Part shown: piece by piece, positions 45,273 to 58,722 of the stretch
Position numbering within the stretch: the stretch's first letter is position 1
Layout of the letters: each line of letters begins with the position of its first letter
Origin: Balanoglossus misakiensis
Lineage: Eukaryota > Animalia > Hemichordata
Length of the DNA stretch: 64,000 bases
Direction: 5' to 3'
Assembly: GCA_040954595.2 (NCBI GenBank)
Contig: CM082589.2
Coordinates: forward strand, 8,254,232-8,318,231
The notes under the pieces: generated by a model
The model's input: the letters and a program-made list of their open reading frames with translations, nothing else
Told to the model about the DNA's origin: nothing
Database searches by the model: none
Made by a program: the position numbers and the translations under genes

Positions 45273-46826
45273 TCAAAAGCTGTCTGGGTGTTCCGTCTTC
45301 GAGTCGGTGCACTCCATTGATTTAGCCGTGACGTTAACTGCTGGAGGTTGAATTGGCCGAGTTGGGTTGGCTCCATTCATGCTACCTGCAGAAAAGAATA
45401 TACAAAATATCAATCGCTTAAACCATCACAGATTGATCAAATATCCTTGATTTAGACACAGTTTACAATACATTAGAATAAACAATTATAGTTTTGACTT
45501 GTTACCTTCTTTTGCACATGCTACATGAGTATTCCCTTCTGGTGATAGATTGACTATGGTGTTCTTCACTTCAATATTATTAGCACCCTGTTTACCATTG
45601 GCATCTGTAAGAAATAATGTGGCTTTTCTTAGTGTCGCCATAGTGAATTTTATTCCTATAAACAAACGCGTGGCTAAATTTCACATGGGTTGACCTCCAC
45701 CTTTGCCTTTAGCATTCTCATTCCCTTTCTCTTGCAATGAAGATCTAGGAGTAGGAACCGATTTGGATGGGAGTTTCTCTCCGTGACTGTATTCAAAAAT
45801 GGCATACCCACCTGTGCTTCTCATGTTTGCCATGTCTTTACTCAAGGCATCAATGCGCGCTTTGAGAGCTTCGAAAGGCATCTTCTCATGCGGAGTGCAG
45901 CTGCGTTTCTTTGTTTTACACTGTAACAACAGCATACATCCTATTATTCCTATCAATATGATTATCAGGCATAGGACTCCAACACCAATCCACATGTTTA
46001 CCATCAGCTGTCGTTCTATCCGAAATATATCTGTAGATAGACAAGCACATTTATTGATTAATTGATTGCTTGTTGATTGATTGCTTGTTGATTGATTGAT
46101 TGATTGATTGATTGATCGATCGACTGACTGACTGACTGACTGACTGACTGACTGACTGACTGATTGATTGATTGATTGATTGATTGATTGATTGATTGAT
46201 TGATTGATTGATTGATTGATTGATTGATTGATTGATTGATTGATTGATTGATTTATTGATTGATTGATTGATTGATTGATTGATTGATTGATCGACCGAC
46301 TGACTGACTGACTGACTGACTGATTGATTGTTTGATTTGGTGCATGACGAGCTGACTGGACCCTCTCTTTTGCCAGATTGATTGTCAGAATAACCTTCTC
46401 GCCATTACTTGTTTAATATCATATACTGTAGTAATAAGTTTAATTCGTTGATAGTTTTCAAATTGATTGTGTGAACCATAAATGTGCACTGTGAACGCAC
46501 TTCAACCTTTGTCTAAAACAGAAGGTTATCGCCATATATGATATCTGAATTACTGACATACCAGCATATTCGATGTTTTTATTGGTGTTCTGGCCATCAG
46601 TCGGTGCCTTGTCTGTTGGGTTAGGTAAAACTCCTTGCGAGGAATCAGTAGGGGCTCGTGGAGACGCCGTCAGCCACGGGTCGGTACGGCACTGAAAGCG
46701 GGGAGTGATTCCTTCACCGTGATCGATGCAGTGTTTGCAGTCCTTCGGGCAGCCGGTGGTCGGATAAGTACCAACTGGTAGGCACATCACTTCAATGATC
46801 ACGACGGAAATTAAAAGGGCCTTCAT
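45273..46826 (-). CDS. Receptor D: half-CRD, stalk and TM (exons 46826-46562, 46030-45812 or to ~45700, 45604-45506, 45385-45273)
   Basis: Signal peptide, 4-Cys GCPKDCKHCIDHGEGITPRFQC, P/T/S-rich stalk, TM MWIGVGVLCLIIILIGIIGCMLLL followed by KTKKR, phase-1 tail exons ending ..EHPDSF*. The donor of exon 2 is ambiguous. Confidence 0.78.
46055..46330. repeat. (TGAT)n/(TGAC)n compound microsatellite in intron 1 of D
   Basis: Visible directly in the sequence. Confidence 0.97.
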
Positions 46827-48608
46827 TTTGACACTGTAGAGTAAAATTAAAAATCAAAATTCCGGGGGTTGATAATTGTGAAACAACTTATTCAAGAAAT
46901 TACACAGCAGCTGCAGTATACACGTGCCGCGCGCATTGATACATGAACATGCCACCACAGACCAGCCTCTTTATACACTATACCTATACGTGTCAGTTCA
47001 GTCTCACAGGTTTGGTGATAACTTTTATAAGTCACACATGTTCAGCGATAACTTTCGAAATTCCACAAGGACAATGTGGTTTTTATCTTGTCTTACCTGG
47101 TCTTCCTTACTGTACCTTAGTTACCTTACAAAGATTGATTTACTGAACATGTATCGAACAACAGTGATTTAATAAGCGCTCCAGTGGCCGGAGTGAGAGA
47201 GAGAGCGAGCATCTCACGAGTTGCGAGAACATGCAACTCTCGCGGGGAACTCTTCAAAGCTACAAGGAATGCTGGGTCAAGTATAATCATAGACCCTCGA
47301 GGGTCTATGGTATAATAGACTGTTTAATATCAGTAATGAGATGTGTAAGACTTAAAACGCCTCACCCGCCATGGTGGTATAAAACAGGTATACGTTTCTC
47401 ATTCAGGTAGACTCATGCATGATAAGCGGTATAATCTCTACATCAGGAGATTAAACTGGCCAGTTGCGGGTGTGAGATTCTATTAATCCCATTAATCTTA
47501 AAAATTATATCAGTAAATGTATTTGCAAAATGTTTAGACTCATGCTGTCATCATTGAGGCTGAGAGACACAGAGGTCAAATAGGACTTAATCTCAATGAC
47601 TTTTGATAGGTCCGTTTATGTGGTGTGTAGATACACAAATATTAAGGTCACATAGCAACCGGATAACGCCATTATTTCGATGCTTTGTGCGGTAGACAGT
47701 TGAAGTGCTTTGTTTGAGTACACGTTGTTCAAACGCATTCAAACACCACTCATGCTTGAAAGAAACGATATTATCCATGAGTGAAACTGAAGATAGGGGT
47801 AAACTCATTGCTCTGTAATGTCACTGAAATTCACAGTTGGAGAATATTGAAAAGCCTTTGTTCATACCTAGACTACTGTCACAAAGAGAGTAATCATGCA
47901 TGCAATGCATGGTCCAGCACAGCAGGTGTTCTCCAGTAAACGGAACTGGTGTTTTATCAAAAGGGAGTGTCCAATTAGGGGAAATCCATCCTCAATTAAT
48001 GAAGTTTGTAGATAACACATTCTAGTAATTTAAAGCAAATTATTCGCTAGTTTCGAATAATATTTTATTTCAGTAAAAAGCAAAATACATAGCTCGCCAG
48101 CGTTGATCCCCTTCAATTCGATGTAAAGACACCAACTATCTATTTGTCTGTTTGTCTGTCTGTCTGTCTGTCTGTCTGTCTTACACTACTAAAGCTTAAC
48201 AGATATCCGCAAGCAGCAACTGTTGTCTATGGCACCTATAGTTCTGCAACTCGTAAGCAATTTTGTTGCTGACTACAAGGCAAAAGTAAACCAATGACGT
48301 AATGTTCCTTCCACTTCTCTTTATTAATGAATATTTCACATCCAAGCGACCGTCTTACCACAACCCGTCACACAGTAAATTATTCCACAGCCTGATGGCG
48401 CCTACATGAGGAACACGCTCGGAGAGTTGTTGCGCATGTGTCAAAGGTTGACCGCGTACATTGCAAACTCGGACGAGTCATGTTTCAACAGGTGCTTGTC
48501 AATGTACAGAGGTATTGACACTTGGTGGAGACAATAGAGATGTCATGATATATTATTCATAGCACCAAAGTAGACTATGAAAGCTGTGTCAGTCACACCC
48601 ATTCGGGG

Positions 48609-56944: not shown

Positions 56945-58722
56945 TTAACATTTTAATACTTCAGTGGGTCCTATATTTCCTTCTGCAGAGTCGGTGGCAT
57001 GTAGGACTGGGTGGCGGTTGTTGTCCATATCACTGGCACTGTTCAATAACATCTCTGTTTCTGAATGGCACCTTCTCAAGGGAGGATCCGACAGCTTTGG
57101 CTTGGGCGAAGCTGAAAGGAAATTTGAAATACGCTCTTAGTAATTGCAAATGGGAACGTTTTGTTCCAACAAAGCAAGTGCGGTATTTGCTTATTTTTAT
57201 TCCGATCTCCAACTAGTAAATTTTCTCTCTTCTTTTTTAAAAGAAAAGAGGTGTGGCGCTTAAATTATCGAATGTTTGACAGCGACAAAAAACCCTTTCT
57301 TGTAGTTCGAAAATTAACCGTTGCGATTTGCATTCTATGACGTCATTAAAAACTTTAAATAATACAGTATACTGTTAACATTGCACTGTTTAAGTTTTAC
57401 ATTAATGGCCGGTCATCACGTGGTTGGATAATTGTGTGGCATTGTATGAAACTCACCGCTGTTTGACTGGTTGACTGTCACGTGGGTGATAGTACTCGGT
57501 GGAGCCAGAGCAGCATGCACATCTTGTGGTGATTCAACATCACTTGAACCTGCAGTTAACAGAATAATTATTATTGCAAATTAGAGTGTATTCTCTTGAT
57601 GTAGCTTTTTTTAGTTTGGCAAATATAGACTATGGATCTCAGTCAAGTCACTCGTGAAAATTTGCACTAGAGTTCAATCCAAAGTAAAAAAATATGTGCT
57701 GTTCCGATTACCCGACTTACCCTATATTTAACCTTACTCTAAACTTTTCAGAGTTTCGTAAATCCGGAAGTAAAAATAAAGATGCCAAATATACAAAAAT
57801 TATGAAAATTGCGCGAATCACTCGAGAACTATGACGTCATTCTTCTACACTACGGCGGCCAGAGAAATAAAAAAAAAATCGCAAAATAATCGGAACAGCA
57901 CGTATTATTTTATTTGGCCTCAGCGTGTCCCTTACCAGAAATATCAGTCCCACTGCCTTGTTGGTCGCGTCTAATTCTGGTTTCTCGTTTCTTTTTCCGT
58001 TGTAGGTTGATGAACATCGCCACCACGACAATGACAAGAACTGCAATAACAGCTAACACAATGATATCCACGGCAAGGGACGAACCAAGAAAACCTGTAC
58101 CTGAAATATTATATATGAACTGAAGTTTCACTCATGGATAACAAAAGGGCATTTTTGTGACTGTTTAGTGTACGAAGTCAGAAAGACTCAAATGCAGACC
58201 AAACTATTGTTGTCAGAAAAAAATATAAAATCCTATCGTTATGCTCACCTTGTTTTGAGCCTAGAAATGATTGATGGAGGAAATCTACAGGCAGAAAAAT
58301 AACATCAGTTAGATTGTGTAGAGATGGAGGGAGGGAGGGAGAGGGGGAGGGAGAGAGAGGGGGAGAGAGAGAGGGGGAGAGAGAGACAGCCAACAGACTA
58401 AACAGGCGACCAAATCGTGCCAATAATTGTAATGAAACATTTTTCTATGCAATGACAAACTGCCGATTAAATTCTCATTTTGAGTAATCAATTTGTGGTC
58501 ATCGAATTTTCTTTCTGAATAAATAAGAAAAAAATTACCTTTGCATTGTTCTATGCAAGTCAAAGACACCTGTGATGTAGAAGTACCCTCGTCGGGCCTA
58601 GGGCAAATATCCCTGCAGGGCATACATTGGTACCTTTCAGACGGGTCGAGGCCTTCCCCATGATCCACACAGTAAAATCTGGCATCTCTGTAGCAGGATA
58701 CTTGACATCCATAGGCGGTCAT
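56945..58722 (-). CDS. Grindelwald-like single-CRD receptor G, no signal peptide (exons 58722-58539, 58284-58249, 58100-57936, 57549-57457, 57111-56945)
   Basis: MTAYGCQVSCYRDARFYCVDHGEGLDPSERYQCMPCRDICP..TCIEQC|KDFLHQ, TM GFLGSSLAVDIIVLAVIAVLVIVVVAMFI followed by RKKKR, tail ..SETEMLLNSA..RHPVLHAT..TEVLKC*. Exon-for-exon paralogue of F. Confidence 0.85.

Follow-up and report, generated by a model that had tools for sequence, protein, structure and literature searches.

The acorn worm Balanoglossus misakiensis harbours, in the 64,000-nucleotide (nt) stretch of contig CM082589.2 that was analysed here (assembly GCA_040954595.2, positions 8,254,232 to 8,318,231; hereafter the window), a predicted tandem set of four intron-containing genes for single-pass membrane proteins, named D, E, F and G. 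All four are located on the minus strand and their introns are of the GT-AG type and in phase 1; the span under study (45273..58722) extends from the stop codon of D to the ATG of G. The products share a cysteine-rich module with a long hairpin loop and a recurrent motif within it, and they are likely immune receptors of the Grindelwald/tumour necrosis factor (TNF) receptor type.

Structure of genes D–G and spliced contigs of F and G

Gene G (56945..58722, minus strand) encodes 214 amino acids (aa) in five coding exons (58722-58539, 58284-58249, 58100-57936, 57549-57457 and 57111-56945), which comprise an eight-cysteine domain, a transmembrane (TM) segment at about residues 86-104 and a 110-aa tail. 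Gene F (52317..54294, minus strand; 216 aa) has the same five-exon layout (54294-54072, 53885-53847, 53500-53354, 52704-52621 and 52474-52317) and encodes a signal peptide, an eight-cysteine domain, a TM segment and a tail; the cysteine gaps are 3,6,14,2,3,14,3 in F and 3,7,14,2,3,15,3 in G. Gene E (48609..49973, minus strand; 245 aa predicted) combines a signal peptide with a four-cysteine module corresponding to only the first half (X2) of such a domain, a Pro/Thr-rich stalk and a TM segment; its exon at 48956-48891 is a prediction only. Gene D (45273..46826, minus strand; 231 aa predicted in exons 46826-46562, 46030-45812, 45604-45506 and 45385-45273) likewise has a signal peptide and an X2-only four-cysteine module, followed by a stalk, a TM segment and a tail. 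Its exon at 45604-45506 is supported by tblastn with protein P0004 of Glandiceps talaboti (E 0.002), to which D is the nearest gene of the window. An earlier note on this DNA, made from the sequence alone, had described D–G as very divergent; this holds for D and E, which align to the other motif genes almost solely through the module, but not for F and G, which are 33% identical over 216 aligned positions (E 1e-30). The stalk exon of E contains a perfect 51-nt duplication (49581-49679), visible as a 17-aa repeat in the stalk.

Each of the four proteins has an N-terminal extracellular cysteine-rich domain and a single TM segment (hydropathy 2.5-3.7) that is followed by basic residues. A signal peptide is predicted in D, E and F and not in G, where an in-frame TGA lies four codons before the ATG, the best N-terminal hydropathy is 0.05, and a contig of the public run X3 stops at an AG acceptor (58764) upstream of the ATG (58722). 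The N-terminal hydropathy of a G orthologue, P0002, is likewise low (0.65). The topology of G is type III-like, as in BAFF-R, BCMA and TACI, which are also signal-less type III proteins.

Three public runs, all from one sample of one study, cover the region; one of these, X3, is labelled 'DNA?' and is possibly the window's own source, so that it does not count as independent support. Contigs of X3 skip predicted introns of F and G with no other letters in between. Record 19 joins exon 1 of F to the last exon across 270 nt, which equals the three predicted inner exons (39+147+84); in G, record 20 leaves 91 nt, which fits the 93-nt exon that starts with two overlapping bases, and record 22 leaves 38 nt, which fits the 36-nt exon plus two. 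Because the introns are skipped and the gaps match the predicted exons, the contigs suggest that F and G are transcribed and spliced. Their inner exons are deduced from these gap lengths; in D and E the inner exons are predictions. X3 covers exon 1 and the 3' end of E, and is uninformative for D, where it has no coverage. Some exons of D and E were added late, and the comparisons of tail patterns, identities and modules given here used three-exon models of both genes, which leaves the ectodomain unaffected. Against contigs of run X1, exon 1 of D (46652-46826 covered, by X1 only) shows one synonymous change, while exon 2 shows five amino-acid changes and one synonymous change against X1 and X2 contigs, small numbers drawn from the matches listed (40 of 458).

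A shared motif in a long hairpin loop

In a six-frame translation of the window, four motif peptides were placed on the minus strand, in D, E, F and G, and three domains with a DSxxG hairpin were found further downstream of D–G, in genes A, B and C. The hairpin loop between the third and fourth cysteines (Cys3 and Cys4) has 12 residues in D (46689..46730) and 14 in E (49803..49850), F (54154..54201) and G (58624..58671), versus six (DSxxGx) in A–C, as the earlier note had stated. The shared motif proposed there is also real: the full pattern occurred in 0/60 first-order Markov simulations of the window, and the shorter C.DHG.G is expected 0.017 times per window under the same model, although the pattern tested was chosen after the data had been seen. 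One detail of the proposed form, C[IV]DHG[EV]G-x2/5-R[YF][QE]C, required correction, in that the spacer behind the second Gly is x3 or x5. The loop is the sole feature common to the four paralogues, which differ in stalk and tail.

In the motif block (12 gap-free codons), synonymous divergence (pS) is 0.71-1.39 and nonsynonymous divergence (pN) 0.07-0.16 in all six pairs of D–G; pN is biased low, since the block was picked for its conservation. With pS far above pN, the motif is under purifying selection. Recent duplication or gene conversion was ruled out because synonymous sites are saturated. The view that the loop replaces the hairpin of A–C and keeps its Asp was not sustained. The Asp is found at Cys3+2 in D–G versus Cys3+1 in A–C, and this shift of one position makes it improbable that it corresponds to the DxL-type Asp of A–C; profile comparison by hhalign of D–G, or of the F/G clade, with A–C revealed no homology (probability 0.3% and 0.4%).

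Conservation among acorn worms

A HMMER search over 1.84 billion representative sequences (E<=0.001) gave five matches, of which three are real, and one cluster member was added to them. All real homologues are acorn worm proteins annotated as 'uncharacterized'. Ptychodera flava has two F-like proteins, XP_070570934 and XP_070571006 (48% and 51% identity over the full length), and one G-like protein, XP_070570946 (41%); G. talaboti has the D-like XP_077997887 (P0004), formed by two tandem four-cysteine X2-only modules, both with DHG. No homologue outside acorn worms was found by HMMER, whose reach is limited with so short a profile. The other two matches are chance ones without the cysteine frame, a Diplonema repeat protein (P0003) and a protein with ankyrin-type repeats as judged by eye (P0005); the same applies to the core peptide at two loci from metagenomes (among 39 stretches) and one from viruses (among 10), where it lies in unrelated frames. 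Word-index protein searches gave no homologue among 1340, 44 and 10 candidates, which is weak evidence because HMMER later found homologues, and in the ESM Atlas F matched nothing but low-score rows and G nothing at all.

Together with D–G, these proteins provide nine modules. All nine retain Cys3, Asp, Gly, Arg and Cys4, and the residue after Arg is always Tyr or Phe, so that the core reads C-x-D-[HQ]-G...R-[YF]-x-C; the loop has 12-14 residues throughout. The His is present in seven of the nine modules and is replaced by Gln in two, those of P0001, an F co-orthologue of P. flava, and P0002. Lys and Gln also occur at the [EV] position, and six of the nine modules have the second Gly. None of the five homologue modules matches the exact pattern of the earlier note, and the sequence-defined subtype holds only when written more loosely, as C-[IVM]-D-[HQ]-G-x4-7-R-[YF]-x-C. 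A tree of the nine modules has no supported branch, and the order of events is therefore taken from BLAST only.

The earlier note had also regarded the module as an undescribed type of cysteine-rich domain. This is upheld: no family in Pfam, TNF receptor or other, claims the motif, and it recurs in two further species of acorn worm. In the literature, where subscription journals were little covered, no description of the D–G family or of its loop was found, and the strings CIDHG, CVDHG and DHGEG led only to papers that are unrelated, judging by their titles and the opening of their abstracts.

Predicted fold and relation to known receptors

Drosophila Grindelwald (PDB 6zsy; PMC8024323) has one eight-cysteine domain composed of an X2 hairpin and a helix-loop-helix C2 module, with the arrangement C-x3-C...C-x3-C, a C2 consensus C-x3-C-x11-C-x3-C and an aromatic residue before the third cysteine, Phe46, which packs X2 on C2. 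F and G share this plan. Together with the three P. flava proteins (P0001, P0006 and P0002), they have eight cysteines, C-x3-C-xn-C-x3-C and the CXXCXXXC signature of the grnd-like receptors (bioRxiv 2024.07.27.603686), while D, E and both modules of P0004 have four cysteines and end at the X2/C2 border. The aromatic residue before Cys3 is present in 8/8 domains with C2 (the five family members and A–C) and in 0/4 without it; these counts come from related sequences that are not independent, and a packing role is suggested by Phe46 of Grindelwald. D–G resemble Grindelwald further in their single TM segment and in having no death domain, and differ from it in that C2 is absent in D and E, G has no signal peptide, no match is found at the sequence level, and the loop of 14 residues in F and G compares with about six in Grindelwald, as judged from residue numbers 46-54 in PMC8024323. 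The short (about six-residue), rigid hairpin of the Grindelwald type is found in none of the nine modules.

The structure of F was modelled with AlphaFold from eight family sequences, A–C being left out; a model from the single sequence was poor (pLDDT, the predicted local distance difference test, 56.5). In the mature domain the model has strands at residues 11-15 and 26-30, joined by a loop with one helical turn, and helices at 31-34 and 48-54; pLDDT is 67.7 overall and 80 over residues 11-30. The domain of F and G is accordingly predicted to start with a beta-hairpin that holds Cys1-4 (X2) and to continue with a helix-loop-helix module that holds Cys5-8 (C2), and D and E are predicted to consist of X2 alone. 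In a wide search with VIA-align, Grindelwald 6zsy ranked first of 48,161 chains (Z 2.2; root-mean-square deviation, rmsd, 2.9; 42/48 residues aligned; 24% identity), the Grindelwald reading having been set down before this search. A TNF-receptor fold of the Grindelwald type is considered probable for D–G, and the case is indirect, since it is built on cysteine gaps, the AlphaFold model, the VIA-align rank and the co-occurrence of the aromatic residue with C2.

Both Grindelwald and the BAFF receptors contact their ligands mainly through the hairpin tip (PMC8024323, PMC5865148): that of Grindelwald sits between two Eiger subunits (PMC8024323), and in the BAFF receptors a loop with DxL(V/L) occupies a BAFF pocket (PMC5865148). 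Recognition through the hairpin tip is common to the single- or partial-domain receptors BAFF-R, BCMA, TACI and Fn14, and BAFF-R, whose X2-only partial domain is functional (PMC8024323, PMC6186824) and also serves self-assembly (PMC6186824), is a precedent for the X2-only modules. Neither DxL(V/L) nor SxDL, the tip motifs of this group (PMC5865148, PMC8024323), occurs in D–G, all nine modules having D-[HQ]-G; DxL is found only in the neighbour A. Grnd-like single-domain receptors of other invertebrates carry CXXCXXXC and show lineage-specific expansions, with 12 paralogues in one annelid; 115 such receptors are reported from invertebrates, and several non-deuterostome phyla have them. The main text of that report mentions neither hemichordates, echinoderms and chordates nor hairpin insertions (bioRxiv 2024.07.27.603686).

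Tails and linear motifs

The tail of F contains YTNV, SET-x-M-x-LNSA and a C-terminal VLKS, all kept in P. flava. SET-x-M-x-LNSA with a terminal VLK[SC] is common to F, G, P0001 and P0006, the conservation of YTNV is limited to the orthologues of F, and GFLG-x2-L-x2-D is found just before the TM segment in F, G and their orthologues. Pfam detects no death domain in the tails of the full-length homologues. A pattern x[QEH]xTD, defined post hoc, occurs in C, D, E and G (shuffle P 0.03-0.08 each). The tail of E ends in TAV, and the tails of B and E both end in class I PDZ-type motifs.

The short-loop neighbours and the surrounding window

A–C are eight-cysteine single-domain receptors themselves and share with D–G the strand, the array and the phase-1 exon plan. 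Gene C (40673..41906, minus strand) is receptor-like with the short DSxxGx hairpin and matches Pfam TNFR_c6 with E 8e-5, below the curated cut-off. Its short-hairpin paralogues are B (36002..37765, minus strand; TNFR_c6 E 0.11) and A (29240..30406, minus strand; TNFR_c6 E 8.5e-4), the latter with the DxL hairpin, an uncertain start codon and a PxQxT-type motif in its tail. Besides these sub-threshold TNFR_c6 matches, A–C show weak similarity to 4-1BB and BCMA; TRAF-binding patterns are present in the tails of A and B, and a single word-index search gave no homologues of A–C.

Downstream of the receptor array and on the same strand, positions 2-4411 contain a DED exon (Pfam E 6.6e-13) and a NACHT exon (E 1.8e-14), which likely belong to one DED-NACHT gene of the NOD-like receptor (NLR) type. 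An immune gene neighbourhood is suggested. A second, weak DED-like frame is found at 21929-22438 (E 0.0015), and between the two DED frames a 2.68-kb unit is repeated about 3.3 times (5609-14429; 98.6-99.5% identity), by recent tandem duplication or as an assembly artefact. Reverse transcriptase fragments are present at 44145-45223 and 60940-61548 (minus strand; Pfam RVT_1 E 2.7e-16 and 3.9e-4), one such remnant separating the D–G block from A–C, and a weak tyrosine-integrase fragment lies at 32285-32548 (minus strand; E 0.042).

Candidate function and alternative explanations

The reading preferred here, judged to have a little better than an even chance, is that the D–G ectodomain has the Grindelwald-type TNF-receptor fold and would bind a trimeric TNF-family ligand through its lengthened hairpin tip. 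A ligand-binding role of the long loop is likely by analogy, because the loop sits where Grindelwald and the BAFF receptors touch their ligands. In the predicted strands, the Asp would be opposite the Tyr with the Arg adjacent, as deduced from strand limits rather than coordinates, and the invariant Asp, Gly, Arg and Tyr/Phe would close the base of the loop, whereas variable residues at its tip would set ligand preference. Binding would then cluster three receptors, as is typical of the family, and the tails, lacking a death domain, would use short linear motifs to recruit adaptors; D and E would be modulators or minimal receptors, comparable to BAFF-R with its partial domain. The proposal of the earlier note that the loop is the functional surface is supported by its position and weakened in that the invariant residues, at the base of the modelled loop, may be structural rather than contact residues.

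Several results weigh against this reading. Pfam assigns no family to any of D–G (0/4 at E<=10, TNFR_c6 included, a model against which Grindelwald itself was not scored) and no TNF-receptor family to the four homologues (0/4), and hhalign did not connect D–G with A–C. The model of F has a predicted template modelling score of 0.42 and a pLDDT of 54-62 in the C2 region; the match to 6zsy is weak, its Z tied within 1 with two unrelated chains (rmsd 5.1 and 5.7). Foldseek found nothing at E<=0.001 and placed EGF (E 8.2, TM-score 0.25) ahead of TNFR1 (E 9.4), none of its six chains reaching Z 2. Among orthologues, conservation of the hairpin (8/14, 11/14 and 8/14 identical residues) does not clearly exceed that of the stalk (14/22, 14/22 and 11/23), the DxL motif is absent from D–G, TRAF2/3/6 patterns are absent from their tails as first modelled, and a loop of 12-14 residues may not fit the TNF groove. 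D–G are filed as working like Grindelwald-type receptors and not as proven members, because the Pfam match, the short hairpin and the DxL motif were not found.

With the same Grindelwald-like fold, the loop might serve a partner other than TNF, such as a different cytokine, a molecule from a microbe or the chain of an adjacent receptor; alternatively, the invariant residues might only hold the shape of the loop. Precedents for TNF-receptor-fold proteins with non-TNF ligands are p75NTR and IGFLR1. The absence of DxL, a loop twice the length of that in A–C and the location of the invariant residues at the predicted loop base all agree with this explanation, as do the self-assembly role of the partial domain of BAFF-R (PMC6186824) and the retention in F orthologues of the YTNV tyrosine motif with no recognisable TRAF motif. 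It is nevertheless considered rather unlikely, in view of an insertion that falls at the very position which contacts the ligand in the solved single-domain receptors, and that is the one feature common to all four paralogues.

A more distant alternative is that D–G are unrelated small disulfide modules, with an EGF- or furin-repeat-like 1-3/2-4 knot, that adjoin A–C by chance. The hhalign result, the place of EGF as the first Foldseek row and the C-x3-C-x2-C spacing of D, which recalls furin-like repeats, would fit such an origin, as would the lack of Pfam and PDB matches; PDB sequence searches returned nothing for D–G or for A alone, and Grindelwald was not among the matches of any sequence search. 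The spacing between Cys4 and Cys5 is C4-x2-C5, and it is C4-x1-C5 in folds of the EGF type. Since, in addition, the eight-cysteine spacing with two C-x3-C helices is that of Grindelwald, which headed the wide search of folds with the complete domain, and the modules without C2 have also lost the aromatic residue, this alternative is decidedly unlikely.

That the His acts as a pH or metal switch controlling ligand binding or release, the contact envisaged in the earlier note, is very improbable as a family property, despite its presence in most modules and the open question of pH-dependent protonation raised for Grindelwald His66 (PMC8024323; a residue of the C2 loop and not of the hairpin), because Gln, which keeps size and hydrogen bonding but neither titration nor metal binding, replaces it in P0001 and P0002, apparently by two separate changes as P0006 keeps the His, because the exact pattern fails in the homologues, and because the modules contain neither another conserved His nor a free Cys.

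Implications

In the preferred reading of D–G as receptors with a Grindelwald-type fold, the four genes represent an undescribed variant of a known receptor fold that is conserved in at least two other acorn worm species. Published reports describe Grindelwald as arthropod-specific (bioRxiv 2021.12.26.474206) and its eight-cysteine pattern as 'unique and derived', with Grindelwald clustering apart from hemichordate, amphioxus and human TNF-receptor domains that human queries had recovered (PMC11377715), and TNF signalling genes are known to respond to poly(I:C) in Saccoglossus, with no such receptor named in the accessible text (PMC10210618). An acorn worm array that is invisible to Pfam and has the cysteine plan of Grindelwald would fill the deuterostome gap and would show that TNF-receptor counts in invertebrate deuterostomes are too low. 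It is possible, though unlikely, that acorn worms have true Grindelwald-fold TNF receptors, which would make the eight-cysteine domain, taken for a derived trait of arthropods, deuterostome as well, and that one branch evolved a new recognition loop of twice the usual length, able to work even in a free-standing receptor of four cysteines (one module in D and E, two in Glandiceps) and to bind a class of ligand that no known TNF receptor uses. The array provides a natural series for ligand specificity at the hairpin tip, with a short loop in A–C, a long one in F and G, and a long one without C2 in D and E, with or without a signal peptide.

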